From an uncultured Acidobacterium sp. (lineage in GTDB: Bacteria; Acidobacteriota; Vicinamibacteria; Vicinamibacterales; UBA2999), in contig CAYGMD010000001.1 in assembly GCA_964350785.1 (NCBI GenBank), positions 6,853-70,852 of the forward strand: a stretch of 64,000 nucleotides of DNA, read 5' to 3'. Shown piece by piece: positions 26,503 through 51,062 of the stretch. Every line of letters starts with the position of its first letter. The stretch's first letter is position 1. The notes beneath the pieces were generated by a model, which had not been told where the DNA came from, did not search any database, and saw only the letters and a list, made by a program, of their open reading frames with translations. The position numbers and the translations under genes were made by a program.

Positions 26503-26518
26503 TGCACCCCCCATGCCA
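26503..26518 (-). promoter_or_regulatory. candidate sigma-54 (-24/-12) promoter
   Basis: Minus strand reads TGGCAT-GGGGG-GTGCA, with GG and GC 10 nt apart. It lies about 30-45 nt upstream of the GTG at 26474. Confidence 0.55.
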
Positions 26519-26630
26519 CGGCCCACGGGTGCAAATCCCGCCAGATTCAGGGTGTTCGTGCAGGGGAATGGGGAGAATGCGCGGTCGCCCCTTGAAATCT
26601 TCCGCGGGCGCAGACGGGGTCGCCGCCAGG

Positions 26631-27416
26631 TCAGCAGCCGGGTACGGCCAGCACAAACGCGCGGCCGGTCTTGAGCACCGCGGAGGCAATGAGCCCCGGC
26701 CGCCCGCGCGGCTGCTGGCGCAAGCCCATAACCACCAGGCCGGCGCCCTCGGCCACCGCGCAGCGCGAGATCTCTTCCGCCACGTCGCCACGCCTGACAA
26801 CCAGCGACGTCGGCTTGACCGGCTCGAGGCCGCGCCCGCGGTCGCGCAGTTCGGCCGCCGCATCGTGGTCGGAGACCTTGCTGCGGGCCACGGTCATCAG
26901 CACGAGCGGCTGCCCGGCCACCTGAGCCAGGCGGCTGGCCAGCTGCAGCTGGTGCTCACAAGGCATGGTCAAGTTGATGGGAGCTACCAACGGCCCGCAC
27001 GTCAGGGCCGCCCGCTCGCCCATGCTGACAATGTCGACCTCGGTTGGCGGCACCAGCAGCACCGGTGTGCGCGCCAGGCCCAGCAACGCCTCGCTCGTCG
27101 AGCCCAGCAGCAGCCGCGCCAGGCCGCCGTGACCGCGCGAGCCGACGACGATGAGCGTGGCGGCGTGGCGCAGGGCCTCGCGCTGAATGACCTCCGACAC
27201 GCGGCCGGTGGCGACAATCACCGACTCGCTCTCGATGTCGGCCTCATACGGCGCGGCGCGCTCGCACTCGGCCAGCACGCGCTGCTTCGCGCCGGCCGAA
27301 TCATCCGCGCTGACATGCAGGACGAGCAGCCGGGTGCCCAGCAGCTTTGACAAGCCGTAGGCGTGAAACAGCACCCGCCCCGTCAGCGGTCCAAGGTCAA
27401 CGGCGCACAAAATCAC
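26631..27416 (-). CDS. tandem universal stress protein (two Usp domains)
   Basis: ..ILCAVDLG.. and ..LIVVGSRGHGGLARLLLGSTSEALLGLARTPVLLV.., followed by a second Usp-like half. ORF 26631..27563. The start is uncertain; GTG at 27416 is preferred over TTG at 27563. Confidence 0.8.
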   Translation of the reverse strand: MILCAVDLGPLTGRVLFHAYGLSKLLGTRLLVLHVSADDSAGAKQRVLAECERAAPYEADIESESVIVATGRVSEVIQREALRHAATLIVVGSRGHGGLARLLLGSTSEALLGLARTPVLLVPPTEVDIVSMGERAALTCGPLVAPINLTMPCEHQLQLASRLAQVAGQPLVLMTVARSKVSDHDAAAELRDRGRGLEPVKPTSLVVRRGDVAEEISRCAVAEGAGLVVMGLRQQPRGRPGLIASAVLKTGRAFVLAVPGC

Positions 27417-27481
27417 GCCATTCGTAAAGGCAAGGGCCGTGCCGCGATCGGGCGCGCCAAGTGGGGGCCAAATGGCCGAAA

Positions 27482-27521
27482 CCAGCCTTGCACTGGGAAA
27501 TCCAGCCTTGCACTGGGAAAT
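27482..27521. repeat. perfect 20-bp tandem duplication in a divergent intergenic region
   Basis: CCAGCCTTGCACTGGGAAAT occurs twice. Read on the minus strand, the junction gives TGGATT-TCCCA-GTGCA (27489..27504), a -24/-12-like element facing the Usp gene. Confidence 0.8.
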
Positions 27522-27638
27522 AACGCCGGGATCGGGGAGATTTCCCGCGCAAACCCGCGGCAATCCGGCCGGTCACCGGGGCCGGGCATCGGCACGCCTT
27601 TCGCTTCGCATGGGTTGGATTCCCCTTGGAGGTGTGAG

Positions 27639-28646
27639 ATGCCGTTTGCCAAATCCCTCTTGCGGCCCGCCTTCGCGGTGTTTGTGATCGCCCATGGCCT
27701 GGCGCATGCGGTGCTGCCCATGCGCGGCTGGATGAACCCCGAGACGCTCGGCCGGGACTTCATGCCCGTGGTCCTCTACGGCGTGGCGATTCTCGGCTAC
27801 GCCGTCGCCGGCCTCGGCATTGCCGGCGTGCGGCCGTTCCCGGCGGCCGTCCGGCCGCTGATGGTGATCGCGCCCGTCTACTCACTGGTCGCGCTCTCGC
27901 GCATGGGCCACGGCGACCTCTGGTGGGTCGCCGCGGTCGACGTGATGTTGTTGATGGTCGGCCTGACCGGGGCATACCATTACCTGCCGGCGCCACGTGC
28001 CCACGGCCGCCTGCATCACGCGGTCGGCCTGGCCGCGGCCGTCGCCTTCCTGGTCTATGCGACCGGCGCGGCGGCGTTGTGGCCGCTGCACCGGGCCTGG
28101 GGCTCCCGCCCGGGCGAACACGCCATGGCCCTGCCGGGCGATGCGCCCGATCGCAACCCGTCTCTGGAGATTCAGCATGCCGTCACGGTGAACGCGCCGC
28201 CCGAGGCGGTGTGGCCGTGGCTGGTGCAGCTGGGCCAGGACCGGGCCGGCTTCTACAGCTACGACTGGCTGGAGCGGGCCTTCGGCGTCGACGTGCACAA
28301 CGTCACCGAGATCCGCCCCGAGTGGCAACACCGCGCCCCAGGCGACCGCGTGCGCGCAACGCAGCCCAATTACCTGGGCGGCGTGCTCGGGCGCGACCTG
28401 GGCTGGACGGTCAGCGACCTGCAGCCGGGCCGGGCCCTGGTGCTGCACCAGTGGGGTGCCTTCGTGCTCATGCCCACGGAGGACGGCAAAACCCGCTTCA
28501 TCATCCGCACGCGCATCGGCGACCAGCGGACGCCGGTGTGGGCGGCCGCGCTCGATGTCATGACGTTCGGGCTGCCCCACTTCATCATGGAGCGCCGGAT
28601 GATGCTGCGGATCAAGGCGCTGGCGGAAGGAGGACAAACCACATGA
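27639..28646 (+). CDS. membrane-anchored SRPBCC-domain protein
   Basis: ATG at aa 93 of ORF 27363..28646, after GGAGGTG. The N-terminal half has about 5 TM helices. The C-terminal half carries ..VNAPPEAVWPWLVQLGQDRAGFYSYDWLE... Confidence 0.65.
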   Translation: MPFAKSLLRPAFAVFVIAHGLAHAVLPMRGWMNPETLGRDFMPVVLYGVAILGYAVAGLGIAGVRPFPAAVRPLMVIAPVYSLVALSRMGHGDLWWVAAVDVMLLMVGLTGAYHYLPAPRAHGRLHHAVGLAAAVAFLVYATGAAALWPLHRAWGSRPGEHAMALPGDAPDRNPSLEIQHAVTVNAPPEAVWPWLVQLGQDRAGFYSYDWLERAFGVDVHNVTEIRPEWQHRAPGDRVRATQPNYLGGVLGRDLGWTVSDLQPGRALVLHQWGAFVLMPTEDGKTRFIIRTRIGDQRTPVWAAALDVMTFGLPHFIMERRMMLRIKALAEGGQTT

Positions 28647-29456: not shown

Positions 29457-30501
29457 CTAGCAGATGCGCGGCAGTTGCTCGCCGCTCAGCATGTCGACCA
29501 CGCGAGTCGCGCCGATGCGGCTCTTCAGCGTCACCAAGCCACGCGGGTGGTCCGACACGACACCGATGGCGCAGGCGTCGGCGCTGACGGCGTGCTGGCG
29601 CAGGATCTCGAGCGCGCGCGCGGCTTCGGCCGCCGGCACGAAGGCGATGAACCGCCCCTCGTTGGCGACATAAAGCGGATCGAAGCCGAGAATCTCGCAC
29701 GCGCCGCGCACGTCCTCGCGGATGGCAATGGCGTGCTCGTCCATGCGGATGTGCAGGCCGGTGGTCTCGGCGATCTCCACGGTGGCGCTCGCCACCCCGC
29801 CGCGGGTGAGGTCACGCAGGCAATGGATGGTGACGCCCGCCGCAATCAGGGCGAGCACCGGCGCCGCCAGCGGCGCGCAATCGCTTTCGATCGCCGACTC
29901 GAACTGCAGCCCCTCGCGGGCCGCCATCACGGCCATGCCGTGGCGGCCGATGTCGCCCGAGAGCAGCACGGCGTCGCCGGGCTGCACGCTCGCGGGGGCA
30001 ATCACGCCGTCGTACTCGATCACCCCGACCCCGGCCGTCGTCACGTACACCCCGTCGCCCTTCCCGCGGTCCACGACCTTGGTGTCGCCGGTGACCACGG
30101 TGACGCCGGCCTCGCGCGCGGCGGCCTGCATCGACTGGACGATGCGCCGCAGGCTGTCCATGGGCAGGCCCTCTTCGATGACGAAGCCGGCGCTCAGGAA
30201 CTGCGGCCGGGCGCCGCACATGGCCAGGTCGTTGACGGTGCCGTTAATCGCCAGCGTGCCGATGTCGCCGCCGGGGAAGAACATGGGCCGGACGACGTAC
30301 GAGTCGGTCGAGAACGCCAGGCGCGTGCCGGCCAGGTGGAGGTGCGCGCCGTCGTGGTGCGCGTGGTGCGACGGATCGCCGAACGCTGGCAGGAACAGGC
30401 TGTCGATCAACTGGTTGGTGAGCCTCCCGCCGCCGCCATGCGCCATCAGCACGTGCGTGTGATCGCCAATCGGCACCGCGCAGGTGGGGCCTGCGGACAG
30501 G

Positions 30502-30512
<11 letters not shown>
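29457..30512 (-). CDS. hypE: hydrogenase expression/formation protein HypE
   Basis: Start at [14 protein letters not shown]... AIR-synthase-like fold motifs. Diagnostic C-terminus ..GEQLPRIC. Confidence 0.95.
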
Positions 30513-31625
<1,113 letters not shown>

Positions 31626-31629
<4 letters not shown>

Positions 31630-31883
31630 GACCCTTCCCCTTCCTCGAGCTCGGCCAGCTCGCCCATCTGCTCGAGATAGGTGAACACCTGGCGCGCCTC
31701 GTCCTCGTCGACCGTCGAGATGGCAAAGCCCACGTGCACCAGCACGAAGTTGCCGACCACCGCGTCGGGCACGTAACTGAGATTCACGCGCTTCACCACG
31801 CCGGCGAAGTCGACCCGGCCGCTGCGGAGCACGGGGTCGTCACCGTCGATCGTGAGGATGCGTCCAGGGATGGCGAGACACAT
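31626..31883 (-). CDS. hypC: HypC/HybG/HupF-family hydrogenase assembly chaperone
   Basis: Start is [12 protein letters not shown].. (the essential N-terminal Cys2) after AAGGAGAG. ATGA overlap with hypD. Confidence 0.9.
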
Positions 31884-34183
31884 TGAGGGCTCTCCTTGGC
31901 TCGAAGACAGGCGGCGATTTGTCCCAGGGCGATGCCGCCGTCGTTGGGCGGCACGCGCTGGTGCCAGTACGGCCGGAACCCGGCCTGGCGCAGCCTCGTG
32001 ACGGCGCGCTCCACGAGATACCGGTTCTGAAAGCACCCGCCGCTCAGCACGACGGCGGTCTCGCCGGCGGTCTCGGCGGTGGCCAGGATCATATCGGCCA
32101 TGGCGTTGTGGGCGCGCGCGGCGATGATCCCGACCGCGACTCCCCTCGCGGCATCGTCAACCACGGCCCGCACCATGGGCGCCCAGTCGATCACCAGGCG
32201 CGGCGCCTGCCACGTGCCGATGGCGAAACGATGCCCCCGCTCGGTGAGCGCGAAGGGATAAGCGTCGCTGACGCCAGGCGCGATCGCAAACTCCAGGTCC
32301 ATGGCCGCCTGCCCCTCGAAGCTCGATCGCTGGCGGAGGCCGGCCAGCGACGCGATCGCGTCGAACAGCCGGCCCGCGCTCGTCGTGACGGGCGCGTTCA
32401 GCCCTCGCCCCATCGCGTCGATCAGCAGGAGGGATTCGCCGGCCGTGAAGGCCGCGGCGGCCGCCGGCGCGACGGGCGCCGCCGTCTCGCGGGCGATGGC
32501 GTGCAGGGCCCCCAGCGCCGAGCGGCGGGGCTCCTTGATCGCGCGATCGCCGCCGGGCAGCTGGAAGGGCCGCAGGCAGGCGACTCGCGTGAACGAGGCC
32601 GCATCCACGGCGAAGAACTCGCCGCCCCAGACCGTGCCATCGAGGCCGTAACCCGTGCCGTCCCAGGCCACGCCGAGCGCGCGGCCATCGAGCTGGTTCT
32701 CGGCCATGCAGGCCGCGACATGCGCCACGTGATGCTGAACATGCGTGACCGGCAGGCCGAGCGACGCCGCGTGCCGGGTCGATCGATAGTCGGGATGCCG
32801 GTCGGCGACGACGGCGACGGGCGTGATCCCGTACAGGCACTGGAGATCGCCAATCACCTGGACGAACGCCGCGCTCGCCTCGACCGATTCGAGATCGCCG
32901 ATGTGCTGGCTGACGATCACCTCGCCGCCGTTGGCCAGCGCCACGCTGTTCTTGAGATGCGCACCGACCGCGAGCAGCGGCGGTGACGACGGCGCGATGG
33001 GTACCGGGAGCGGGGCGTAGCCGCGCGCCCGGCGCAGCACCAGCTCGCGATCGAGGATCACGCGGACAATCGAATCGTCCACGTTCCGGACGATGGGGCG
33101 ATCGTGCACGAGGAACAGGTCGGCAATCGCGCCGAGACGGTCTACGGCCTCGCGTTCATCGGTGCAGATGGGCTCATCGGCCCGGTTGCCGCTGGTGGCC
33201 ACCACCGGTCCGCCGAGGTCACCCAGCAGCAACGCGTGGAGGGGCGTGTACGGCAGCATCACGCCGAGATTGGGATTGCCGGGCGCCACGGCCGGCGCCA
33301 GTCCCGGCCCGGCATGGCTGCGCCTGGCGAGCAGCACGATCGGCGCCTCCGCCGACGTCAGCAGCCGGCGCTCCGGGGCCGTCACGACGCAGTCGCGATC
33401 CAGCGATGCCAGGTCCGGGTACATCACGGCGAACGGCTTCTCTTCGCGGTGCTTGCGGGCGCGCAAGCGCCGGATGGCCTTTTCGTTGGCGGCATCGGCA
33501 ACGAGGTGGAACCCGCCCAGGCCCTTGACGGCGACAATCTTCCCGTCGCGAATCGCGCTGACCGCCGCGCGCGCGGCCGCGTCGGCCGCCGCGAATGGCC
33601 GGCCGGACGCGTCCCAGGCGGCGAGGCCCGGGCCGCAGCGCGGGCAGGCATTCGGCTGCGCATGGAACCGCCGGTCGCAGGGGTCGTGGTATTCGCGCTG
33701 GCACTCGAGGCACATCGTGAACCGGCGCATCGACGTGTGGTCGCGGTCGTACGGCATCGCGTGGATGATGCTGAACCGCGGGCCGCAGTTGGTGCAGTTG
33801 GTGAACGGGTAGCGGTAGCGGCGGTCGGCGGGGTCGAACACCTCGCGGCGGCAGTCATCGCACAACGCGAGGTCAGGCAGCACGAGTGTCGAGAACGCAC
33901 CGTCGCGGACGCTGTCGAGGATCTGGAAACCCGAGTGGCCGGCCGGGTCGAGCCACGACGCTTCGAGGGTGTGAATCGCGGCGTGTGGCGGCCGCTCGCC
34001 GGTCAGGCGGGATCGAAATACGTCCAGGTCCTGGCGGCGGCCCTCCACTTCGATGACGACGCCCAGGGTCGAGTTGCGGACCCAGCCGTCGAGCCGCAGG
34101 TCGCCGGCCAGGCGGTAGACGAATGGGCGAAAGCCGACGCCCTGAACGGCACCCCGGACCGCGAGCCGCAGGCGTTCACGCAT
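31793..34183 (-). CDS. hypF: carbamoyltransferase HypF
   Basis: Acylphosphatase-like N-terminus (..[19 protein letters not shown]..), two CxxC zinc-finger pairs, and YrdC-like and Kae1-like domains. Its 3' end overlaps hypC by 91 nt. Confidence 0.95.
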
Positions 34184-34835: not shown

Positions 34836-35194
34836 GACGCCCTCTCCCTCGCGTCGTCGAGCTCGACGTCCACGACGTGAAGCTCGTCACCGTGCCGGAT
34901 CGCCATGCCGAGCGCTCCGCACGACGGGCACACGAACTGCGCGCCCGACAGCCCGGTCACCCGGCCACATTCGCTGCAGACCGCCTCGGCCGGCACGCGA
35001 TCGATTTCGAGCACCGCCGCGGCATACGGCGTGCCGGCCACGATGGCGGCGAAGCAGAACGCGAGGGAATCCGGCACCACGCCCGCCAGGTCGCCCACCC
35101 GCACGCGGACCGCGCGCACCCGCGCGGCATCGGCGTCGCGCACGTTGTGCTGGACGATGTCGAGGATGCCGGCGGCGAGCGTCAGTTCATGCAT
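34832..35194 (-). CDS. hypA: hydrogenase maturation nickel metallochaperone HypA
   Basis: Start is MHELTLAAGILDIV.. (the MHE nickel-binding N-terminus). CxxC..CPxC zinc site (CSECG.. / CPSCG..). Confidence 0.9.
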   Translation of the reverse strand: MHELTLAAGILDIVQHNVRDADAARVRAVRVRVGDLAGVVPDSLAFCFAAIVAGTPYAAAVLEIDRVPAEAVCSECGRVTGLSGAQFVCPSCGALGMAIRHGDELHVVDVELDDARERAS

Positions 35195-39574: not shown

Positions 39575-39625
39575 GGTGCGGGCTCCCGCCCCGGATAATT
39601 CGCCGTGACTGCGAACTATTCCGCG

Positions 39626-41775: not shown

Positions 41776-41791
41776 TGGCCCGGTCCGTGCA
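41776..41791 (+). promoter_or_regulatory. weaker sigma-54-like element upstream of the acyl-CoA synthetase gene
   Basis: TGGCCC-GGTCC-GTGCA, then GGAGGA, then TTG at 41815. Confidence 0.4.
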
Positions 41792-41814: not shown

Positions 41815-43938
41815 TTGCCTGAGTTGCCGCACCTGCCCCCCGCCCGATCTTTGACGCCGTTTTTTGAGCCGGCCTGCGTGGCCGTCGTCGGCGCCAGCCG
41901 CGAACGCAATAAGATCGGGTCGGAAATCCTCCACAACCTGGTGGCCACCGGGTTCACGGGCAAGGTGGTTCCCGTTCATCCGGCAGCCGACACCATTCAG
42001 GGCCTGACCGCATATCCGCGGGTCGCCGACATTCCATCGGCTGTTGACCTCGCGGTGATCGTGGTGCCGGCGGCGCAGGTGCCGGCGGCGGTCGACGATT
42101 GCCTGGCCAGGCAGGTGCCGGCCATCTGCATCATCAGCGCCGGGTTTGGCGAGTGCAGCGAAGAGGGCCGCGCGATCGAGCGCGAGATGGTGCGCAAGAT
42201 TCGCCAGGCCGGCAGCCGCCTGATTGGCCCCAACTGCATGGGCCTGCTCAATACCGATGCGCGCTTCGCGTTGAACGCCACCTTCTCGCCGGTGTATCCG
42301 CCGGCCGGCGGCGTGGCCATGTCGACGCAAAGCGGCGCCCTGGGCCTGGCGATTCTCGACTACGCGCGACAGTTCAACATCGGCATCTCGAGTTTCGTCT
42401 CGGTCGGCAACAAGGCCGACGTCTCGGGCAACGATCTGTTGCTGTACTGGGAGACCGATCCCAGCACGGCGGTGATCCTGCTGTACCTGGAAAGCTTTGG
42501 TAACCCGTCGAAGTTCAGCCGCATTGCCCGGCGCATCAGCCGCACCAAGCCGATCGTCGCGTTGAAGTCGGGGCGCTCCCCGGTTGGCGCGCGCGCGGCC
42601 GCCTCGCACACCGGCGCGCTGGCCTCGTCCGACGACTTCGTCGACGCGCTCTTTCACCAGGCGGGAGTCATCCGCACCAACACGGTCACCGAGTTGTTCG
42701 ACGTGGCGACCCTGCTGTCGCGGCAGCCGCTGCCGAGCGGCCGCCGCGTGGCGATTCTGACCAACGCCGGCGGCCCCGGCATCCTGGCCGCCGACGCGTG
42801 CCTCGCGCACGGCCTCGTGGCCGCCGAGCTCACTCCCGCCACGAAGGCCGCGCTCAGGGCGTTCCTGCCGGCCGCGGCGGCCGTCAACAACCCGGTCGAC
42901 ATGCTGGCCTCGGCCTCGCCGGCCCAGTACCGGCAGGCACTGGGCCGGCTGCTCGGCGATCCCAATGTCGACAGCGCCATCGTGATCTTCATTCCCCCGC
43001 TCATCACGAGCGCGGATGAAGTGGCGACGGCCATTGCCGGCGCGGCGGCCGGATCGGGCAAACCCGTGGCCGGCGTCTTCATGCGCAGCCACGCGGCTCC
43101 GGGGTCGCTGGCGGCGGTACCGTGCTATGCCTTCCCCGAACCGGCGGCCATTGCCTTGTCACGCGTCGCGGGCTACGGCGAATGGCGGCGCCAGCCGCTC
43201 GGCGAGGTGCCGCCGTTCCCCGACTTGCAGGCCGGACTGGCGCGCGCCGTCGTCGACACCGCGGTGCACCGCGGCGGCGGCTGGCTGTCGGCGGTCGAGG
43301 CCAATGCCCTGATCTCGGCGGCCGGCATCGCGACGCCGCGGTCGCACTTCGCCACGTCGGTGGATGAAGCGGTCGAGGCCGCCGCCAAGCTCGGCCTGCC
43401 CGTGGCGGTCAAGGCCGTCGGCGCGGCCCTGCTCCACAAGACCGAGCACCGCGCGCTGCGGCTCAACCTCGGTTCGCGGGCCGCCGTCCGCCAGGCGGCC
43501 GTCGAGTTGACCCAGGCCCTGGGCGATCGCATGGACGGCTTGTTGGTGCAGACGATGGTGAGCGGTGGCGCCGAGATGATGATCGGCGCGATCAACGACC
43601 CGATCTTCGGCCACGTCGTCGTCTGCGGCAGTGGTGGCGTGCTGGTCGATCTGCTGGCCGACTCGGCGTGCCGGCTGCATCCGGTCACCGATCGCGATGC
43701 GCACGAGATGGTCGAGTCGTTGAAGGGCGTGCGCCTGCTGCGCGGGTTCCGGGGCGCCGAGCACGCCGACGAGCCGGCGTTCAGGGACGCCATTCTGCGG
43801 ATCTCGGCGCTGGTCGGCCTGTGCCCGGAAATCCAGGAACTCGATGTGAATCCCATGAAGGTGCTGCCCGGGGGCGTGTCGGCCATCGACGTGCGCGTGC
43901 GCGTCAACGGAGGAAGTGAGGAAGTGAGAAGCTTCTGA
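41815..43938 (+). CDS. ADP-forming acetyl/acyl-CoA synthetase (fused alpha-beta, NDP-forming family)
   Basis: TTG start 5 nt after GGAGGA, aa 48 of ORF 41674..43938. CoA-binding ..VAVVGASRERNKIGSEI.., ..LIGPNCMGLLN.., ..SFVSVGNKADVSGNDLL.. and a C-terminal ATP-grasp part. Confidence 0.85.
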   Translation: MPELPHLPPARSLTPFFEPACVAVVGASRERNKIGSEILHNLVATGFTGKVVPVHPAADTIQGLTAYPRVADIPSAVDLAVIVVPAAQVPAAVDDCLARQVPAICIISAGFGECSEEGRAIEREMVRKIRQAGSRLIGPNCMGLLNTDARFALNATFSPVYPPAGGVAMSTQSGALGLAILDYARQFNIGISSFVSVGNKADVSGNDLLLYWETDPSTAVILLYLESFGNPSKFSRIARRISRTKPIVALKSGRSPVGARAAASHTGALASSDDFVDALFHQAGVIRTNTVTELFDVATLLSRQPLPSGRRVAILTNAGGPGILAADACLAHGLVAAELTPATKAALRAFLPAAAAVNNPVDMLASASPAQYRQALGRLLGDPNVDSAIVIFIPPLITSADEVATAIAGAAAGSGKPVAGVFMRSHAAPGSLAAVPCYAFPEPAAIALSRVAGYGEWRRQPLGEVPPFPDLQAGLARAVVDTAVHRGGGWLSAVEANALISAAGIATPRSHFATSVDEAVEAAAKLGLPVAVKAVGAALLHKTEHRALRLNLGSRAAVRQAAVELTQALGDRMDGLLVQTMVSGGAEMMIGAINDPIFGHVVVCGSGGVLVDLLADSACRLHPVTDRDAHEMVESLKGVRLLRGFRGAEHADEPAFRDAILRISALVGLCPEIQELDVNPMKVLPGGVSAIDVRVRVNGGSEEVRSF

Positions 43939-43960: not shown

Positions 43961-44452
43961 CTAAGCTTTCGCCGCCGCGATCAGCGCGTCGGGGGCAATG
44001 AAGTCCCGCTCGTTCGTGCGCACCGCCAGTACCGGGCACGGCGCCGTGCGCACCACCCGCTCGGCGGCGCTGCCCAGCAACAACTGCTTCACGGCGCCGC
44101 GGCCGTGCGTGCCAACGACGATCAGGTCGATGGCGTTGGCCTTGGCGTACTCGGTGATGCCGCCGGGGACGTTGAAGCTGGTTTGCACCACGCCGACCAC
44201 CTTGAGGGTCTTGCGATCGTCCTCGGTGATCAAGGCGTCGAGGTCGCGGTGCGCAGCCTTCTCCAGGTCGCGCTGGAGATCCGGGATCGCAAAGCCCACT
44301 TCGGGGCTGTAGCGCATCATCACGTCCTCCACGACGTGCAGCACGTGGAGGGTGGCGTTGTACGAGCGGGCCAGATCACGGCCATACGCCATGGCGACAG
44401 CCGACGGCTCACCGAAGTCGGTGGCAACGAGGATGTTCTTCAGCACAACCAT
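43961..44452 (-). CDS. universal stress protein (UspA family)
   Basis: MVVLKNILVATDFGEPS.. and ..LIVVGTHGRGAVKQLLLGSAAERVVRTAPCPVLAVR... Confidence 0.9.
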   Translation of the reverse strand: MVVLKNILVATDFGEPSAVAMAYGRDLARSYNATLHVLHVVEDVMMRYSPEVGFAIPDLQRDLEKAAHRDLDALITEDDRKTLKVVGVVQTSFNVPGGITEYAKANAIDLIVVGTHGRGAVKQLLLGSAAERVVRTAPCPVLAVRTNERDFIAPDALIAAAKA

Positions 44453-44501
44453 TGGAAGCCCTCATCAAATCGCCGGCGGAGGCGCCGACGTCAGTCTAAT
44501 G

Positions 44502-44517
44502 AGCACAATACATGCCA
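44502..44517 (-). promoter_or_regulatory. candidate sigma-54 (-24/-12) promoter of the Usp gene
   Basis: Minus strand reads TGGCAT-GTATT-GTGCT, about 50-65 nt upstream of the ATG at 44452. Confidence 0.55.
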
Positions 44518-44562
44518 CCAAACGACTGAACAAGTGGCCCGATTATTGAAATCGCGCCGGAC

Positions 44563-45036
44563 ATGAAAGCGATCGCGGGCGCGTTCGAACGGTTTTCCGG
44601 GCTCGATACCCCGGCGCCGGTCGTGACGGCGCGAGAGATTCTGAGGACGGCCGTGAAAAAACTCCCACTCCACGTCCTTGTCGTCGATGACGAACCGTTG
44701 ATTCGCTGGTCGGTAACCGAAACCCTTGCCGACCTTGGCCTTGACGTCGAACAGGCCGACTGCGCCGCCTCGGCGCTGCAGACCATTACGACCACGGCCC
44801 TGCCCTTCGATGTCATCGTCCTCGACCTCCGGTTGCCCGACATGCGGGACCTCTCGCTGCTGGCGACCATCCGGCAGCTGCTGCCCGAGACGCCGGTGGT
44901 GTTGATGACCGCATTCGGCACCCCCGAGATCATGGCCAACGCGCGCCAGCTGGGCGTGCGCGCCGTGCTGAACAAGCCGTTTGAACTCAGTGAGTTGAGC
45001 CGCGTCGTGGTGGACGCGTTGACGCCGGTGCGTTGA
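44563..45036 (+). CDS. stand-alone response-regulator receiver protein
   Basis: ..VLVVDDEPLIRWSV.., ..DVIVLDLRLPD.. and ..LNKPF... About 35 aa of N-terminal extension. No output domain. Confidence 0.85.
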   Translation: MKAIAGAFERFSGLDTPAPVVTAREILRTAVKKLPLHVLVVDDEPLIRWSVTETLADLGLDVEQADCAASALQTITTTALPFDVIVLDLRLPDMRDLSLLATIRQLLPETPVVLMTAFGTPEIMANARQLGVRAVLNKPFELSELSRVVVDALTPVR

Positions 45037-45093: not shown

Positions 45094-45558
45094 ATGATTA
45101 ACCCCTCTTTCGGACACCAGACGCCGCCGGGCACCGGAATGCCGCCGGGTCCGCTGGAGAACGCGACCGGGCCGGCCGAGCGGCCGGCGCCGCGCACCGC
45201 CCTGGTCGTCGACGACGAGGCGCTCATCCGCTGGTCGGTCAGCGAGACGCTCGGTGAGTTGGGCTTCGACGTCGCGCAGGCCGCCGACGGCGCCTCGGCA
45301 ATGAGCGCCATTGCCGGCGCCGCCGCGGCCTTCGACGTCGTGGTGCTCGACCTGCGGTTGCCCGATGTGAACGACCTGTCGCTGCTGGGCCACGTGCGCG
45401 AACTGCTGCCGGCGGCCATGGTGGTGCTGATGACCGCCTTTGGCACCGCCGAAGTGGTGGCCGGCGCCCAGGCCCTCGGCGTCGCCGGCATCCTCAACAA
45501 ACCCTTCGAACTCGCCGAACTCAGCCGCCTGCTGACGCGCGACGGGCCGGCTTCGTAA
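45094..45558 (+). CDS. stand-alone response-regulator receiver protein (paralogue of 44563..45036)
   Basis: ..ALVVDDEALIRWSV.., ..DVVVLDLRLPD.. and ..LNKPFELAELSRLL... Confidence 0.85.
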   Translation: MINPSFGHQTPPGTGMPPGPLENATGPAERPAPRTALVVDDEALIRWSVSETLGELGFDVAQAADGASAMSAIAGAAAAFDVVVLDLRLPDVNDLSLLGHVRELLPAAMVVLMTAFGTAEVVAGAQALGVAGILNKPFELAELSRLLTRDGPAS

Positions 45559-46928
45559 TGGCCAATGCCACGATCCTGATCGTCGACGACGAGCAGTTGA
45601 TCCGCTGGTCGCTGGCCAGCCGCCTGAAGGACGAAGGTTACCGGATCCTCGAAGCCGGCACCGCCGCCGAAGCCCTGTCGCAACACCGCGAGGGCGTCGA
45701 CCTGGTGCTGCTCGACATCGGCCTGCCCGACGCCAGCGGGTTGTCGGTGCTCAAGCAGATCAAGGAATCGGATCCCGATACGCTGGTCATCATGCTGACC
45801 GGCCAGACCGGCGTGCAGACCGCGGTCGAGGCGATGAAGAACGGCGCCTTTCATTACGCCAACAAGCCGTTCGATCTCGACGAGGTCGTGCTGCTGGTCG
45901 AGAAGGCGCTCGAGACGACGCAGTTGCGCCGCGAGGTCCGCACGCTGCGGGCCCGGCAGGCCCAGCCCTACGGCCCCGAAAGCATCGTCGGCGAAAGCGC
46001 GCCGATCGTGGCGGTGCGGGCCATGCTGCAGAAGATCGGCGTCAGCCCCGCGTCGACCGTGCTGCTGACCGGCGAGAGCGGCACCGGCAAGGACCTGGCC
46101 GCCAAGGTCATTCACTACAGCAGCAACCGCGCCGCGCGGCCGTTCATGAACATCACCTGCTCGGCGCTGCCCGAGACGCTGCTCGAAAGCGAGCTGTTCG
46201 GCCACGAGCGCGGCGCCTTCACCGGCGCCGACCGGCAGAAACGCGGCCTGCTCGAGTCGGCCGACGGCGGCACGGTGTTCCTCGACGAGATCGGCGAGAT
46301 GGTGCCGCTGCTGCAGGCCAAGCTGCTGCGGTTCCTCGAGGAGAAGTCGTTCAAGCGCGTGGGCGGCTCGGCCGACGTCAAGGTCGACGTGCGCGTGATC
46401 GCCGCGACCAACCGTTCGTTGCAGGAAGAGGTCAGGAAGGGCCACTTCCGCGAAGACCTGTTCTATCGCCTCAACGTGATGGCGGTGCCGCTGCCGCCGT
46501 TGCGCGAGCGGCGGGACGACATCCCGCGGCTGCTGCGCCACTACATCGACCTGTTCAACGTCGAGTTCCGCAAGAAGATCGTGGGCGTGTCGCCCGGCGC
46601 GATGAAGGCGCTGCAGGCCTACGCCTGGCCCGGCAACGTCCGCGAATTGCGCAACGCCGTCGAGCGGGCCATGCTGCTGACCGAGAGCGCCGAGTTGTCG
46701 GAGGCGCAGTTTGCCATGCTCGGGGCGCCGGAGGGCGAGTTGTCGACCGGCATGGGCTTGCCGGCCAGCGGTATCAACCTCGAGGAGCTCGAACGGTCGC
46801 TGGTGGTGCAGGCGCTCGAACGCAGCGGCTGGAACCAGACCAAGGCGGCGACGCTGCTCGGCCTCAACCGCGACCAGATCCGCTACCGCATCGAGAAGTT
46901 CAAGCTGGAGAAGGCAACTCCACGGTAA
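45558..46928 (+). CDS. sigma-54-dependent Fis-family response regulator (NtrC-type bEBP)
   Basis: REC domain (..ILIVDDEQLIRWSL.., ..LVLLDIGLPD..), AAA+ domain with ..GESGTGKD.. and the ..GAFTGA.. sigma-54 contact loop, and a C-terminal Fis-type HTH ..NQTKAATLLGLNRDQIRYRIEKF... Confidence 0.93.
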   Translation: MANATILIVDDEQLIRWSLASRLKDEGYRILEAGTAAEALSQHREGVDLVLLDIGLPDASGLSVLKQIKESDPDTLVIMLTGQTGVQTAVEAMKNGAFHYANKPFDLDEVVLLVEKALETTQLRREVRTLRARQAQPYGPESIVGESAPIVAVRAMLQKIGVSPASTVLLTGESGTGKDLAAKVIHYSSNRAARPFMNITCSALPETLLESELFGHERGAFTGADRQKRGLLESADGGTVFLDEIGEMVPLLQAKLLRFLEEKSFKRVGGSADVKVDVRVIAATNRSLQEEVRKGHFREDLFYRLNVMAVPLPPLRERRDDIPRLLRHYIDLFNVEFRKKIVGVSPGAMKALQAYAWPGNVRELRNAVERAMLLTESAELSEAQFAMLGAPEGELSTGMGLPASGINLEELERSLVVQALERSGWNQTKAATLLGLNRDQIRYRIEKFKLEKATPR

Positions 46929-47985
46929 CGGTCGTGCCGCCGCCCGGCGGACACGTCACGCTAATCCGGCCCTCGTGCAGTTCGACCAGGCGCTTGGCGG
47001 TGGCCAGGCCCAGGCCGGTGCCGCGCGCCTTGGTGGTCTTGAACGGGCGAAACAGCATGGCGCGGATTTCGGGGTGAATGCCCGGGCCCTGGTCAATGAC
47101 GTCCACCCGCAACCAGCCGTCCGCCGGCGTCATCGCCACCGTGATGGCGCCCTTGCCGTGCATGGCCTGCGCCGAGTTGATCAACAGGTTCTGAAACACG
47201 ATGGTCATCAGCAGCGGGTCGAGCGGCATGGCCGGGGCGTCGCCGGCGATGGTGACGTCGAGGCCGCCGAAGGCCGGGTCGGTCTTCAACAGGCCCACCA
47301 CCTCGGAGAGCAGGGCGCGCAGGTCGGTGGCCGCCGGCCTGGGCTGTGGCGGCCGCGCGAACACCAGCAGGTCCTGGATCAGGTTGTTCAGCGCGTCGAT
47401 GCGGGCGATGATCTCCTTGATGATGGCGCCGTCACCGCCGTCGCCTTTCATGCGCGAGCCGATTACCTGGATGGCGCCGCGCACGGCCGCCAGCGGGTTC
47501 TTGATTTCGTGGGCAATCACCGCGGCCATCTCGCCCAGGCGGGCCAGGGCGCTCGCCTCGCGCAGGCGGTCCTCGAGCTCGGCCCGGCTCGACAGGTCAT
47601 GCAGGATGCCGGTGAAGTGCGGCTCGCCGTCAATCTCCATGCGGCCGACCGACAGGTGCAGGGGGAAGGTGTGGCCGTCCTTGCGGCGGCCGGTCACGGC
47701 CCGGCCGATGCCGATGATCTTGCGCTCGCCGGTGCGGAGGTGGTTCGCCAGGTAGCCGTCATGTTGCGAGTGATCCGGCTCGGGCATCAGGATGCTGACG
47801 TTGCGGCCTGTCGCCTCGGCCTCGCTGTACCCGAACATCTGCTGGGCCGCGGCGTTGAACACCTCAATGCGGCCTTTCGAGTCGATCACGATAATGCCGT
47901 CGACGGCGGCGTCGATCACGGCGCGCCAGCGCGCCTCGGCAATGCGGCCGGCGTCCATCAGCTTGTGCGGTTCGGTTTCACTCAT
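46900..47985 (-). CDS. FixL-like haem-PAS sensor histidine kinase (cytoplasmic)
   Basis: The PAS region ..GIIVIDSKGRIEVFNAAAQQMFGYSEAEATGRNVSILMPEPDHSQHDGYLANHLRTGERKIIGIGRAVTGRRKDGHTFPLHLSVG..GEPHFTGILHDL.. closely parallels my recollection of the Bradyrhizobium FixL haem-PAS domain, including the proximal His in ..SQHD... H-box ..AHEIKNPL... N/G1/G2 boxes are present. Confidence 0.85.
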   Translation of the reverse strand: MSETEPHKLMDAGRIAEARWRAVIDAAVDGIIVIDSKGRIEVFNAAAQQMFGYSEAEATGRNVSILMPEPDHSQHDGYLANHLRTGERKIIGIGRAVTGRRKDGHTFPLHLSVGRMEIDGEPHFTGILHDLSSRAELEDRLREASALARLGEMAAVIAHEIKNPLAAVRGAIQVIGSRMKGDGGDGAIIKEIIARIDALNNLIQDLLVFARPPQPRPAATDLRALLSEVVGLLKTDPAFGGLDVTIAGDAPAMPLDPLLMTIVFQNLLINSAQAMHGKGAITVAMTPADGWLRVDVIDQGPGIHPEIRAMLFRPFKTTKARGTGLGLATAKRLVELHEGRISVTCPPGGGTTVTVELPSPA

Positions 47986-48089: not shown

Positions 48090-48524
48090 CTACGAGTTGT
48101 CCCACTCTTCCTCCCCGCGGGCCTTGCGCACCTCGCGATTGGACTTGTGTTCGGGCGTGCGGGCCAGCAGGTCCAGCAGGTCGGAAACCGTCACGATGCC
48201 GGCGACCTTGCCGTTGGCCGAAGTCACCACCAGCGATCCGACCGAGCGGCCCTTCATCAGCGTGGCCGCCCGCCGGATCGGCGTGCGGGTGGTCACGGTC
48301 AGCACCGGGCTGGTCATGAGGTCGCCCACCGTCCACTGGCCCAGCACCTTGGGCAACTTCGCGCCGCCGAGATCCCGATCAGAGACGATGCCCTGAAGTC
48401 TGGCGCCGTCGGTCACCACCAGATGGTGAATCTTCTTTTGCCGCATGCGAGTCTTCGCTTCGGACGCAGCCACCTTCGGCTTGACGGTCTCAACGGCCTT
48501 GCTCATCACTTCGTAGACTCTCAT
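48090..48524 (-). CDS. CBS-pair domain protein
   Basis: Start is MRVYEVMSKAVETV.. after AGGAGAG. There are two CBS motifs (..HHLVVTDGARLQGIVSDRDL.. and ..GSLVVTSANGKVAGIVTVSDLL..). Confidence 0.85.
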   Translation of the reverse strand: MRVYEVMSKAVETVKPKVAASEAKTRMRQKKIHHLVVTDGARLQGIVSDRDLGGAKLPKVLGQWTVGDLMTSPVLTVTTRTPIRRAATLMKGRSVGSLVVTSANGKVAGIVTVSDLLDLLARTPEHKSNREVRKARGEEEWDNS

Positions 48525-48561: not shown

Positions 48562-48577
48562 TGCAAAGTCGCTGCCG
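48562..48577 (-). promoter_or_regulatory. weaker sigma-54-like element upstream of the CBS gene
   Basis: Minus strand reads CGGCAG-CGACT-TTGCA, about 40-55 nt upstream of the ATG at 48524. Confidence 0.4.
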
Positions 48578-48695
48578 TCGCGCGTCAGGGGAATGCGGCC
48601 CGCGGCCCCTTCCCGGACGCGAGGAATACTCCCCAAGATGGGGGGTTTTTCCCTCTGGATCTGCGCTATCGGTGTCACCTGTGGCTCGTGGCGGT

Positions 48696-48711
48696 TGGCA
48701 TGGAGGATGCT
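48696..48711 (+). promoter_or_regulatory. candidate sigma-54 (-24/-12) promoter
   Basis: TGGCAT-GGAGG-ATGCT, 22 nt upstream of the ATG at 48733. Confidence 0.5.
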
Positions 48712-48732: not shown

Positions 48733-49191
48733 ATGTTGAGGATCTTCGCCATCAGCGTGTTGGGATTCGTGCTCGTTCAGGGGAGCGCGGCGGCACAGAC
48801 ACCGCAGGAACAGGACCGTATCCTCCGGATGTTCCAGCAAAGCGTCGCCACGGCCGCCGCCATCAAGGACCCGCACATTTTCACCCTGCCTGTGGCGACG
48901 GTCTTCCGCCAGGTGATCGCCAGGACCCTGGACGAGCAGCCCCACGTTTCGCACCTGGCCGGCGCCGGCACCAAGTTGCCGCTCGCGCACCACCCGGTGG
49001 TGTTCGAGCCGTTCCCAGCCACGGAACTGCATGAGTTCCCGGCGCTGCTGGAACGGGCGCTGCCCCCCCTTCCCCCGGGGCTCGAGTACCGGTTGATCGG
49101 CAACGACCTGGTGCTGCGCGCGGTTGGGGACGATGTGATTGTCGCGGTGTTGCGCGACGCGGTCGGCCGCGCCGTCACCACCCGGCGTTGA
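48733..49191 (+). CDS. secreted hypothetical protein (paralogue of 25860..26474)
   Basis: MLRIFAISVLGFVLVQGSAAAQ signal peptide. ..ALPPLPPGLEYRLIGNDLVLR.. is shared with the 26-kb ORF. Confidence 0.6.
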   Translation: MLRIFAISVLGFVLVQGSAAAQTPQEQDRILRMFQQSVATAAAIKDPHIFTLPVATVFRQVIARTLDEQPHVSHLAGAGTKLPLAHHPVVFEPFPATELHEFPALLERALPPLPPGLEYRLIGNDLVLRAVGDDVIVAVLRDAVGRAVTTRR

Positions 49192-49209
49192 GAGCGCAAA
49201 GGAGGCGTC

Positions 49210-49458
49210 ATGCCGGCCCAAGTCAGTGAACCCTGCACGGTGTATGTGTTCGATCGATCGCCGGCGAGCGCGCTCGAGCTCCGCATCCGCGGTGAGTTCC
49301 GCGAGATGCCGGGCATGCGCCTGAAGGCGGAACAGGCCATGCGCCTGTGGTCGATCGATCACGCCACCTGCCAGCAGGCCCTGGACGACCTGGTCCGGGA
49401 AGGCTTTCTGCAGCGCGACGCCATGGGCCGCTACGCGCGTGCACACAGCGGCTATTGA
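49210..49458 (+). CDS. small hypothetical protein, possibly winged-helix-like
   Basis: AAGGAGG 6 nt upstream. 82 aa. ..MPGMRLKAEQAMRLWSIDHATCQQALDDLVREGFLQRDAMGRY... Confidence 0.5.
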   Translation: MPAQVSEPCTVYVFDRSPASALELRIRGEFREMPGMRLKAEQAMRLWSIDHATCQQALDDLVREGFLQRDAMGRYARAHSGY

Positions 49459-49476
49459 CCGCATCGGAGAAACGTC

Positions 49477-50031
49477 ATGCGCACACTTCCCGCACTCGCC
49501 GCCGCCCTGGCCCTGGCCGCAACCGCCGCCTGCGCCAGCATGAGCGTCAGCTCTCACATCGAGCGCGGCGTCAACTTCGCCGAGTACGTGACCTGGGACT
49601 GGAGCCCGCCCGACAACCTGCCGGTCGGCGATCCCCGCCTCGACAACAACCCATTCTTCAACGACTACCTGCAGGGCGCCGTCGAGAAGCAGCTCACGGC
49701 CAAGGGCTTCACCCGCGTGGCCGAAGGCCGGCCCGCCGACCTGGTGGTGCACTACCACGCCAGCGTCAACCAGCGGCTCGACGTCTATCGCGCCGACCAG
49801 GAGTACGGCTACTGCTACGGCGACTGCCGGCCGCAGGTCGTCGACTTCGAACAAGGCACGCTGGTGATCGACATCGTCGACGTCAAGACCAAGAAGGTGG
49901 TGTGGCGCGGCTGGGCGCAGGACACGATGACGGGGATCATCGACAACCAGGGCCGCCTGGAGGAGCAGGTGGACGAAGGCGTGACGAAGATGTTCCAGTT
50001 GCTGCCGCGCGGAGGAGCGGCGCTGCGCTAG
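49477..50031 (+). CDS. DUF4136-family lipoprotein
   Basis: Lipobox ..LAATAAC... ..ADLVVHYHAS.. and ..GTLVIDIVDVKTKKVVWRGWA.. are typical of DUF4136. Confidence 0.75.
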   Translation: MRTLPALAAALALAATAACASMSVSSHIERGVNFAEYVTWDWSPPDNLPVGDPRLDNNPFFNDYLQGAVEKQLTAKGFTRVAEGRPADLVVHYHASVNQRLDVYRADQEYGYCYGDCRPQVVDFEQGTLVIDIVDVKTKKVVWRGWAQDTMTGIIDNQGRLEEQVDEGVTKMFQLLPRGGAALR

Positions 50032-50032
50032 G

Positions 50033-50060
50033 AAAGTGAAAAGTGAGAAGTGAGAAGTGG
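50033..50060. repeat. 4 x 7-bp tandem repeat (A/G)AAGTGA between convergent genes
   Basis: GAAAGTGA AAAGTGA GAAGTGA GAAGTGG. It shares the AAGTGAGAAG core with the hairpin at 43912..43956. Confidence 0.6.
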
Positions 50061-50062
50061 GT

Positions 50063-50761
50063 TTACACCGTGCGGCCAACGGCCCAGCCGGCCAGCGCGG
50101 TGAGACCCATGGCGAGCGCGCCCCATAACGTCACGCGCCATGCTGCGCGACCGGGGGGCGCGCCGCCGACTCTCGCCGCCACCGCCCCCAGCACCCACAG
50201 CAACACCAGCGACGCGACGGCAATCAGCGTTTGCGCCTGGGCCGCCGGCACCACCACCGCCACCAGGATCGGCAGAGTGGCGCCCACGGCAAAGCTTGCC
50301 GCCGAGGCGAGCCCGGCCTGCACTGGGTGGGCGGCCATCGTCTCGCTCAGTCCCAGTTCATCGCGCGCGTGAGCGCCCAGCGCGTCGACCGCGGTCAGCT
50401 TGCGCGCCACCTGATCGGCCAGGCCTTGATCCAGCCCCCGCTTGACGTAGATCGCGGAGAGTTCCCGCAATTCAAACTCCGGGTCGTCGGCCAGCTCCTG
50501 CCGCTCGCGGGCGAGTTCGGCCCGCTCGGTGTCGGCCTGTGAGCTGACCGACACGTACTCGCCGGCCGCCATCGACGCGGCGCCGGCCATCAGGCCCGCG
50601 ACGCCCGCCACCAGCGTGTCGCGCGGGTTCGACGAGGCGGCGGCCACGCCCAGCATCAGGCTCGCGGTCGAGATGATGCCGTCGTTGGCGCCGAGCACGG
50701 CTGCGCGCAGCCAGCCGATGCTGCCGGTGCGGTGCGACTCCTCTGCCGCGTGCGGGATCAT
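50063..50761 (-). CDS. VIT1/CCC1-family iron/manganese transporter
   Basis: Start is MIPHAAEESHRTGSIGWLRAAVLGANDGIISTASLMLGVA.., aa 106 of ORF 50063..51076. ..AGEYVSVSSQ.. motif and C-terminal TM helices. Confidence 0.85.
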   Translation of the reverse strand: MIPHAAEESHRTGSIGWLRAAVLGANDGIISTASLMLGVAAASSNPRDTLVAGVAGLMAGAASMAAGEYVSVSSQADTERAELARERQELADDPEFELRELSAIYVKRGLDQGLADQVARKLTAVDALGAHARDELGLSETMAAHPVQAGLASAASFAVGATLPILVAVVVPAAQAQTLIAVASLVLLWVLGAVAARVGGAPPGRAAWRVTLWGALAMGLTALAGWAVGRTV

Positions 50762-51046
50762 GTCGATCGCGAGGCTAACATGGGCGTCAGAAATCGTGCA
50801 TGGCGGCCGGCGGGAACGCGGCCCTGAGTGCGATCGCTCGCATGCGCCGCGAGAGGTGCATGAACTCGTCGACCTTCTTGAGCGGCGCCAGCAAAGGTAC
50901 TCGCCGAGCCACAACGAGGTGAGCCGTGGGGATCCTCCGAGATTCCGGAGTCCTGGTGACGGCGGAAGAGGGGATCTTTCCGCGAATTCTTGAAATATTC
51001 CCCGCATTTTCGCGGCTTGGGGCGGACCCCACGGCGAGCGAGCAGG

Positions 51047-51062
51047 CGGCTGGATTCTTGCA
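51047..51062 (+). promoter_or_regulatory. weak sigma-54-like element upstream of the cytochrome locus
   Basis: CGGCTG-GATTC-TTGCA, about 100 nt upstream of the ATG at 51160. Confidence 0.35.

Follow-up and report, generated by a model that had tools for sequence, protein, structure and literature searches.

A cluster of sigma-54-type promoters and paired activator sites points to a low-oxygen survival switch in an acidobacterial genome

Are the stress and redox genes that lie close together in an uncultured member of the Vicinamibacterales controlled as one unit and, if so, by which regulators and in response to what signal? We addressed this question in a 64,000-nucleotide stretch of DNA from an uncultured Acidobacterium sp. 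(contig CAYGMD010000001.1, positions 6,853 to 70,852), hereafter the window. An earlier note on this DNA had listed nine 16-mers resembling the -24/-12 promoters of sigma-54, upstream of hydrogenase, Usp, acyl-CoA synthetase, CBS, cytochrome and secreted-protein genes, and had read them as a putative hypoxia regulon. That proposal is supported here by the enrichment of the elements, by their conservation footprints, by pairs of activator sites phased to them, by a neighbouring activator carrying the GAFTGA loop and by a FixL-like PAS domain in the adjacent kinase, from which the signal is predicted. Taken together, the promoters and activator sites point to a switch of a known type for survival at low oxygen, none of which has been described for this phylum.

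The -24/-12 elements and their conservation

All nine 16-mers were found letter for letter where they had been placed and on the strands assigned to them. The bare rule by which they had been recognized, GG-N10-GC, is uninformative, being matched 1453 times in the window against 1472 expected, that is, once per 88 strand-nucleotides. We therefore judge the sites by position weight matrices. The first matrix was an approximate one, based on the published sigma-54 consensus and applied with a cut-off of at least 11 bits to the 128,000 strand positions of the window; with it, the claimed sites ranked 1, 2, 4, 5, 7, 9, 12, 17 and 103. Eight of the nine hits reaching the cut-off fell at intergenic positions facing a gene start no more than 300 nt away, which make up 3% of all strand positions (binomial P 6e-12), and dinucleotide shuffles of these eligible segments gave 0.27 hits compared with the 8 observed, a number reached by none of 2000 shuffles. 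A second, independent matrix was built from 29 intergenic sigma-54 promoters of Salmonella validated by chromatin immunoprecipitation (ChIP), with the spacer neutralized (Table 3, PMC3844500). It placed 48696 (+), 26503 (-), 44502 (-), 41681 (-) and 39523 (-) at ranks 1-5 of 128,000, all of them intergenic and facing a gene, with scores of 13.5-17.7 bits against a minimum of 14.0 and a median of 17.6 for the training promoters. The strict pattern TGGCAY-N6-TGC has five matches in the window, four of which are among these top five. Beyond the five strong sites there are six weaker ones, and the site at 27489 (-) fails. In the window, the best hits are concentrated in gene-facing intergenic DNA, and an enrichment first judged by eye holds for the set as a whole, which is far above chance in the matrix, position and shuffle tests.

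Had the matches been picked by eye from GC-rich intergenic DNA (the G+C content of the window is 65-72%), one would expect what is seen for the unenriched GG-N10-GC rule and for 27489, which is at chance level. Such a selection would not produce an enrichment of about 30-fold over shuffles, a set of five top matrix hits that are all intergenic and gene-facing, or elements conserved across 14 genomes in which the flanks have diverged. Chance is refuted for the core sites, and as an account of the set it is hardly credible. Of the nine sites first listed, eight hold up, five of them strong and three weaker with support from their context. The elements considered here are as follows.

48696..48711 (+): sigma-54 promoter TGGCATGGAGGATGCT before hyp2-p82-DUF4136; rank 1 with the Salmonella matrix, 2 with the consensus matrix
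44502..44517 (-): sigma-54 promoter TGGCATGTATTGTGCT before a Usp gene; Salmonella 3, consensus 1
41681..41696 (-): sigma-54 promoter TGGCATGGACGTTGCC before a Usp-cytochrome c fusion; rank 4 with both matrices
26503..26518 (-): sigma-54 promoter TGGCATGGGGGGTGCA before hyp1-Omp85; Salmonella 2, consensus 5
39523..39538 (-): sigma-54 promoter TGGCGTAGGCCTTGCA before a 52-residue open reading frame (ORF) and the hydrogenase/hyp operon; Salmonella 5, consensus 7
41776..41791 (+): weaker sigma-54 promoter TGGCCCGGTCCGTGCA before the ADP-forming acyl-CoA synthetase (ACS) gene; Salmonella 17, consensus 9
48562..48577 (-): weaker sigma-54 promoter CGGCAGCGACTTTGCA before the CBS protein gene; Salmonella 104, consensus 12
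51047..51062 (+): weak candidate promoter CGGCTGGATTCTTGCA before the cytochrome c and porin-cytochrome operon (51109..59191); Salmonella 139, consensus 17
40351..40366 (-): candidate promoter CGGCACGGGTTTGGCA before the BON protein gene; consensus 8
27429..27444 (-): candidate promoter CGGCACGGCCCTTGCC before the tandem Usp gene, replacing 27489
27590..27605 (+): candidate promoter CGGCACGCCTTTCGCT before a membrane protein gene, 33 nt from its ATG
44535..44550 (+): -24/-12-like element TGGCCCGATTATTGAA before the operon of two receiver-only response regulators (RR1, RR2) and the activator, with TTGA instead of TTGC

Conservation was examined in related loci, cited below by their L numbers where they need to be told apart. 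The ACS sequence retrieved 14 loci with 73-91% protein identity from metagenome-assembled genomes (MAGs) labelled Vicinamibacterales or Acidobacteriota, in which the order Usp-cytochrome c, ACS, Usp, receivers, activator, kinase, CBS and hyp2/p82/DUF4136 is kept. With 14 syntenic Vicinamibacterales loci, phylogenetic footprinting was possible. In motif-anchored alignments the TGGCA and TGC columns are 0.91-1.00 invariant, compared with 0.66-0.80 in the spacer and 0.49-0.56 in the 14-nt flanks, the core values being somewhat inflated by the use of the best matrix hit as anchor. The distance from element to start codon is fixed in orthologous upstream regions. Five promoters could be followed through the orthologs.

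Usp-cytochrome c: TGGCAYGRRSGTTGCC, 14/14 orthologs, 27-40 nt to the ATG
Usp: TGGCAYGNNTYGTGCT, 13/13 orthologs, 44-49 nt to the ATG
hyp2 (or p82): TGGCAYGNNNRRTGCT, 12/12 orthologs, mostly 21-49 nt (9-132) to the start
ACS: YGGCNCGNTCNGTGCA, YGGCNCG-N4-GTGCA, most orthologs, 15-28 nt to the TTG start
CBS: CGGCARCRASTTTGCA, 8/8 orthologs with variable flanks, 22-38 nt to the start

At the Usp promoter (44502), the top-base fraction is 0.99 in the core and 0.49 in the flanks. All 12 orthologs of the element at 48696 read TGGCAYG-N4-(A/G)TGCT, and in loci without hyp2 the element stands in front of p82. L013 retains the hyp1 promoter as TGGCATGCGCGGTGCA, with a pair of activator sites at a gap of 53-54. 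The hydrogenase promoter is kept 184-234 nt before hyaS in L024 and in L031, L032 and L056, the last three (189-234 nt) being close metagenomic relatives of the hydrogenase locus; more distant metagenomic relatives come from many lineages and do not share it, so that only the closest ones are informative.

Two further observations concern the hydrogenase upstream region. The ORF between the promoter and hyaS (52 codons, 39286..39444, -) also appears among the gene calls of related contigs and keeps its start in L024; Pfam gave no match for it. Six other hydrogenase relatives (L034, L041, L042, L043, L047 and L051) carry YGGAAYG-N4-TTGCT 167-298 nt upstream of hyaS, which suggests that sigma-54 control of this hydrogenase type may extend beyond the clade, with a different activator. 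In the Usp leader, a CCGGC-N6-GCCGG palindrome or hairpin (44466..44486, -) is conserved between promoter and ribosome-binding site; its stem has 5 bp, hardly any covariation was seen among the 13 sequences, and it was set aside.

For the ACS, CBS and cytochrome c sites of the earlier note, conservation and an activator site speak for the assignment, while the strength of the motif itself is poor. The CBS element has C in place of T at -26. The cytochrome c element is conserved only in L016 (CGGCCGAGTCTTTGCA); if it is a promoter, an extracellular electron-transfer conduit would belong to the regulon. The ninth site, 27489, was rejected. It ranks 103 with the consensus and 331 with the Salmonella matrix, it is not conserved, and it owes its existence to the junction between the two copies of a 20-bp tandem duplication, TTTCCCAGTGCAAGGCTGG(A/T) (27521..27482, -). 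This duplication separates the activator sites from the tandem-Usp promoter and is missing in L011, L012 and L016. In these three loci the site pair is followed after 51-53 nt by CGGCACGGMCCTTGCS, and the same element is found in the window at 27429..27444, 71 nt from the pair, a gap explained as 51 plus the 20-bp duplication, about two helical turns.

Three other elements had not been listed before. The BON element recurs as TGGMACGNGTTTGGCA in four of five orthologs, 20-26 nt (26 in the window) before the start called on related contigs, and was missed earlier because BON had been taken as a longer ORF. The membrane-protein element at 27590 lies 44 nt from the site pair at 27516..27545, on the side opposite to the tandem Usp, and L013 has CGGCACGCATTTCGCT at a gap of 43. 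The element before the RR1-RR2-activator operon occurs as TGGCSCGATTNTTGAW in 12/12 orthologs, mostly about 12 nt before the ATG and without a Shine-Dalgarno sequence, and in L019 an activator-site pair precedes a copy of it by 45 nt. TTGAT at -12 is also found in STM0649.S, a validated promoter of Salmonella (PMC3844500). The elements at 44535 (+) and 27429 (-) each end exactly 12 nt before a start codon that lacks a Shine-Dalgarno sequence, so that transcripts starting about 12 nt downstream of them would be nearly leaderless.

A strong match inside a gene, TGGCACTGATCCTGCA at 53423..53438 (+), ranks third and lies in the porin-cytochrome operon, within its cytochrome b gene. No phased activator-site pair accompanies it, and 1.6 such matches are expected; it was not accepted as a promoter of the regulon and may be a chance match or an internal sigma-54 site. 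No sigma-70 consensus promoter was found in 39.4-51.2 kb (11.8 kb), which, for an E. coli-type consensus, shows only that there is no obvious alternative.

Paired candidate activator sites upstream of the promoters

The alignments revealed a second conserved block upstream of the promoters, made up of pairs of the near-palindrome GGAAWWTTCC spaced 19-21 nt start to start. Single sites of this kind are not enriched in the window (41 compared with 33.6 expected). Pairs form five clusters, compared with 0.047 in shuffles (maximum of one in 300 shuffles), and four of the five lie 43-54 nt upstream of a -24 element already claimed, namely those of the hydrogenase, Usp-cytochrome c, hyp2 and cytochrome c. 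Within the window and the 14 related loci, nearly every pair is followed by a strong -24/-12 element, and the layout of pair plus promoter was not found in 86 kb of control loci from other phyla. The pairs assigned to promoters are listed here.

39593..39622: GGATAATTCG-N10-GAACTATTCC, 54 nt upstream of the hydrogenase promoter, with a third site at 39552..39561
41742..41771: CGACATTTCC-N10-GGAAAAATCC, between the Usp-cytochrome c (gap 45) and ACS promoters; a conserved block in the 14 loci
48623..48652: GGAATACTCC-N10-GGGTTTTTCC, midway between the divergent CBS (gap 45) and hyp2 (gap 43) promoters; conserved in 11 of 12 aligned sequences (all but L019)
50972..51001: GGATCTTTCC-N10-GAAATATTCC, exactly 45 nt upstream of the cytochrome promoter
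27516..27545: GGAAATCTCC with the weaker GGAAATAACG, between the tandem-Usp and membrane-protein promoters; kept in L011, L012 and L016
26572..26603: weaker pair GGAAGATTTC and CGCATTCTCC, 53 nt upstream of the hyp1 promoter

For the hydrogenase, the gap of 54 in the window compares with 51-62 in L031 and L056. The ACS promoter is only 4 nt from its pair in the window, and 36-72 nt from it in the other loci. Measured over 44 promoter instances, the gaps fall into groups at 42-45, 51-56, 62-67, 76-78, 94-97 and 107-108 nt, which corresponds to a period of 10.5-11 bp (Rayleigh R 0.63); since orthologous loci do not count as independent, the associated P value is overstated and only indicative. 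Enhancer-dependent promoters classically show this anatomy, with two phased sites upstream of a -24/-12 element.

Two other sets of matches were excluded. A pair at 55163..55192 lies inside a cytochrome gene with no promoter nearby and was taken as chance, and the matches at 8914 and 8930 are part of another motif, the palindrome ATATTCCCGATCGGGAATAT, which occurs three times at 8900..9040 (+) upstream of an ORF with an XRE/HipB-like helix-turn-helix (HTH), followed by a gene at 9255..10508. This array looks like the operator of a toxin-antitoxin (HipBA-type) operon and appears unrelated to the regulon.

The neighbouring regulators and the genes of the window

The activator gene (45558..46928) lies among the promoters. 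Its product consists of a receiver, an AAA+ domain and a Fis-type HTH (PF00072, PF00158, PF25601 and PF02954 in Pfam), in agreement with its earlier description as an NtrC-type activator with a GAFTGA loop; GAFTGA is found at residues 219-224, within an ESELFGH...GAFTGA span at 210-224, and the receiver aspartate lies within LLDIGLPD. The nearest solved structure is Aquifex NtrC1 (4l4u), NtrC1 and NtrC4 being the best solved relatives, and identity to the activators of the 14 related loci is 82-94%. Activators with GAFTGA act only on sigma-54.

This last point bears on whether the TGGCA-N7-TGC elements might instead be operators of an ordinary regulator or part of the promoter of another sigma factor. 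Deviations from the consensus would fit that idea: TTGA at 44535, TGGCA at the -12 of the BON element and C at -26 in several others. Yet the invariant positions are exactly those read by sigma-54, at the right spacing, in elements that are asymmetric, that always face the gene and that lie 21-49 nt ahead of the start codon, or ahead of the operon's first ORF. Their scores are like those of ChIP-validated promoters, they are helically phased to an upstream site pair, and an activator specific to sigma-54 is encoded among them. We consider an origin as ordinary operators or as promoters of another sigma factor very unlikely.

The kinase gene (46900..47985) is convergent with that of the activator. 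Residues 9-144 of its product form a PAS domain matching the haem domain of Bradyrhizobium japonicum FixL (E 1.7e-40 to 8js5 and 5.6e-40 to 1dp6, with about 55% identity over the aligned stretch), which bears out its designation as a FixL-like haem-PAS kinase. The segment MPEPDHSQHDGY (proximal His, SQHDGY) and the IIGIGR loop align to FixL motifs and are kept; the position of B. japonicum FixL Arg206 is occupied by Asn. HisKA and HATPase_c domains are present, globin and receiver domains are absent, and this is the sole kinase in the cluster. Pfam searches found no LuxR-type regulator of the FixJ kind within 24-59 kb, and neither a FixJ nor a FixK gene was seen in the window.

The gene model was built on third-position G+C and then checked with Pfam, which confirmed the gene identities proposed earlier. 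The genes around the promoters are the following.

24589..26474 (-): hyp1-Omp85 operon
24589..25863 (-): Omp85
25860..26474 (-): hyp1, hypothetical secreted protein
26631..27416 (-): tandem Usp
27639..28646 (+): membrane protein
29457..39444 (-): group 1 uptake [NiFe]-hydrogenase operon with cytochrome b, HycI protease and HypABFCDE
39626..40324 (-): BON protein
40756..41640 (-): Usp-cytochrome c fusion
41815..43938 (+): ACS, with a TTG start
43961..44452 (-): Usp
44563..45036 (+): RR1, receiver-only response regulator (Pfam)
45094..45558 (+): RR2, receiver-only response regulator (Pfam)
45558..46928 (+): NtrC-type activator, downstream of RR1-RR2
46900..47985 (-): PAS histidine kinase (FixL-like haem-PAS), convergent with the activator
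48090..48524 (-): CBS protein, with the kinase gene downstream
48733..50031 (+): hyp2, p82 (82 residues) and a DUF4136 protein
51109..51888 (+): two cytochromes c
51896..59191 (+): porin-cytochrome gene set

The cytochrome locus of the earlier note extends to 59191 as a porin-cytochrome conduit, with multihaem c-type cytochromes (c7/c3, NapC/NirT and MtrC/F-like), cytochrome b, an 842-residue MtrB/PioB porin and NosL. The two secreted proteins described as paralogues are both preceded by a predicted promoter; their similarity is confined to a 48-residue C-terminal block (hyp1, 25860..26474, against hyp2, 48733..49191; 50% identity, E 4e-10). The common block, FP..ALPPLPP.L.YR..G.DL.L, has no Pfam family, and a further relative adjoins DUF4136 in L018. 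Near-identical contigs to the window are present in several metagenomes, and an Rfam search of the window returned no families.

We consider it probable that the promoter cluster is one sigma-54 regulon under the neighbouring FixL-type kinase and NtrC-type activator, working as a low-oxygen switch. Sigma-54 dependence in vivo, the acting activator and the low-oxygen signal are what we infer here from sequence, and several points weigh against them, besides the inflation of the core conservation and the overstated phasing mentioned above. Neither the Usp promoter at 44502, the strongest of all, nor the BON promoter has a recognizable activator-site pair nearby in the window, and the ACS promoter abuts its pair (gap 4) and would give a leader of only about 13 nt. 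The elements that carry C at -26 (those of CBS, cytochrome c, tandem Usp and the membrane protein) score poorly on a matrix trained on enterobacterial promoters. No RpoN box was detected in the window or the related loci, as expected for a few hundred kilobases, and the GAFTGA activator speaks only indirectly for rpoN in this genome. Another activator, encoded elsewhere, could bind the palindromes, and FixL-type haem can also respond to NO or CO.

Some of these points are shared by an alternative in which the sigma-54 regulon is real and either the neighbouring kinase and activator are not in control or something other than oxygen is sensed (NO, CO, redox or energy state). The activator is linked to the sites by co-localization only, the Usp and BON promoters stand without a pair, haem-PAS sensors bind several gases, and the gene set would suit starvation or energy stress equally well. 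On the other hand, of the 14 related loci, 13 are long enough to show the activator-kinase pair, and every one of these has it within the promoter cluster; a CBS promoter upstream of the kinase gene and a promoter-like element before the activator operon resemble the autoregulated layout of the NmpR system discussed below; and the PAS domain has its match, at E 1e-40, in FixL, which is an oxygen sensor. We regard this alternative as unlikely, though it is the most serious one.

The proposed circuit and its known relatives

If the neighbouring kinase and activator do control the cluster, the switch might work as follows. The soluble FixL-type haem-PAS kinase would be active when oxygen leaves the haem, as in the FixL paradigm, and would phosphorylate the NtrC-type activator, with RR1 and RR2 possibly serving as phosphate sinks. 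The activator would bind pairs of GGAAWWTTCC (20 bp start to start) located 42-56 bp upstream of the -24, or further away by whole helical turns; that these pairs are bound by this activator is suggested by their position, their phasing and their co-localization with it in every related locus reaching these genes. Looping to RNA polymerase-sigma-54 at YGGCAYG-N4-NTGCW, it would then open the promoter, a single site pair often serving two divergent promoters. Predicted targets are three or four Usp genes, the uptake hydrogenase and its maturation genes, ACS, BON, CBS and the membrane protein, together with the two secreted/outer-membrane operons and probably the cytochrome c/porin-cytochrome operon. 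The output would be a persistence programme combining Usp proteins, H2 oxidation, substrate-level ATP synthesis, BON, CBS and envelope proteins, and perhaps a porin-cytochrome conduit.

A wider version of this proposal is tentative, and we would not yet favour it. Across the Vicinamibacterales, which rank among the most abundant orders of soil bacteria, a FixL-type sensor may have been rewired from FixJ and sigma-70 to an NtrC-type activator and sigma-54, becoming the master switch of a DosR-like hypoxic persistence programme that couples Usp proteins, H2 uptake, substrate-level ATP synthesis and a porin-cytochrome conduit. It would act through a new enhancer, two copies of GGAAWWTTCC, driving helically phased divergent promoter pairs, some of them with promoters that lack the -12 GC and give leaderless mRNAs.

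Vicinamibacterales and other Acidobacteriota dominate many soils, and how these mostly aerobic slow growers survive waterlogging and anoxic microsites is poorly understood. If the proposal is correct, it provides a concrete and testable circuit in which sensor and activator, enhancer motif and promoter consensus, and around twelve target operons are all specified. Through this circuit, a loss of oxygen would be coupled to the scavenging of hydrogen, to ATP synthesis from acyl-CoA and to stress proteins, and possibly to electron transfer out of the cell. The circuit would also stand as a clear example of a FixL-type sensor that feeds into sigma-54 instead of the FixJ-FixK route. The two motif models can be used to chart the regulon across thousands of soil MAGs.

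The closest described system is NmpRSTU of Myxococcus xanthus with its NmpR regulon (PMC11841059). NmpR is an NtrC-like, autoregulated and hypoxia-induced regulator that uses two enhancer sites at sigma-54 promoters; the system includes receiver-only protein(s), and its regulon has a CBS protein next to the signalling genes and Usp, as well as a cbb3 oxidase, hemN and a haemerythrin, and its sensor is the globin-coupled kinase NmpU, which acts via the hybrid kinase NmpS, inverting the signal (PMC11841059). Our locus likewise has an NtrC-type regulator, paired upstream sites, a predicted haem sensor kinase and receiver-only proteins, and further shared features, all predicted, are the CBS promoter upstream of the kinase gene, the Usp promoters and the promoter-like element before RR1-RR2-activator. 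Unlike NmpRSTU, the window has a single FixL-type haem-PAS kinase and no globin-coupled or hybrid kinase, it belongs to a different phylum, and the predicted regulon includes a hydrogenase, ACS, BON and a porin-cytochrome operon. The NmpR enhancer, GCGCA-N5-TGCGC in two sites 14-15 bp apart, is not enriched in the window (123 matches compared with 162 expected) and is absent from the promoter regions save for one match overlapping the hydrogenase -12 by chance.

The resemblance to FixL-FixJ-FixK of rhizobia and Caulobacter lies in the sensor, whose PAS domain is homologous to the FixL haem domain and keeps the proximal His and the FG-loop Arg, and in the expected logic of a kinase that would be on when deoxygenated. 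FixL is partnered by the LuxR-type regulator FixJ, which acts with sigma-70 and a FixK (CRP/FNR) cascade, whereas the conserved neighbour here is an NtrC-type sigma-54 activator. DosR (DevR) with DosS/DosT of Mycobacterium combines a NarL/LuxR-type regulator, sigma-70-type promoters, GAF-domain haem sensors and a different palindrome. As in DosR and the Burkholderia lxa locus, a haem kinase would report hypoxia to a Usp-rich regulon with energy-sparing and redox genes, and non-growing persistence is the predicted outcome; unlike in DosR, the window has no NarL/LuxR-type regulator or GAF-haem kinase, and the likeness is one of function and gene content rather than of protein family.

NtrC-family control of a membrane-bound uptake [NiFe]-hydrogenase is established for HoxA/HupR of Cupriavidus, Bradyrhizobium and Rhodobacter, in several species with sigma-54, and the sigma-54 control predicted here for the uptake hydrogenase is similar. 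In the HoxA/HupR systems the response is to H2, by way of a regulatory hydrogenase and HoxJ/HupT. Sensor genes of this kind are absent from the window, where the hydrogenase would belong to a broader stress regulon that has a haem-PAS kinase. Hydrogenase COGs also occur in proteobacterial sigma-54 regulons, in a cross-phylum study that does not mention Acidobacteria (PMC12316311). Our literature search found neither a description of a sigma-54 regulon for Acidobacteriota nor a pairing of a FixL-type kinase with an NtrC-type activator, which is not proof of absence. Set beside these systems, the kind of switch, a low-oxygen response through sigma-54, is already known; what is new is the organism, the apparently rewired sensor and the enhancer motif.

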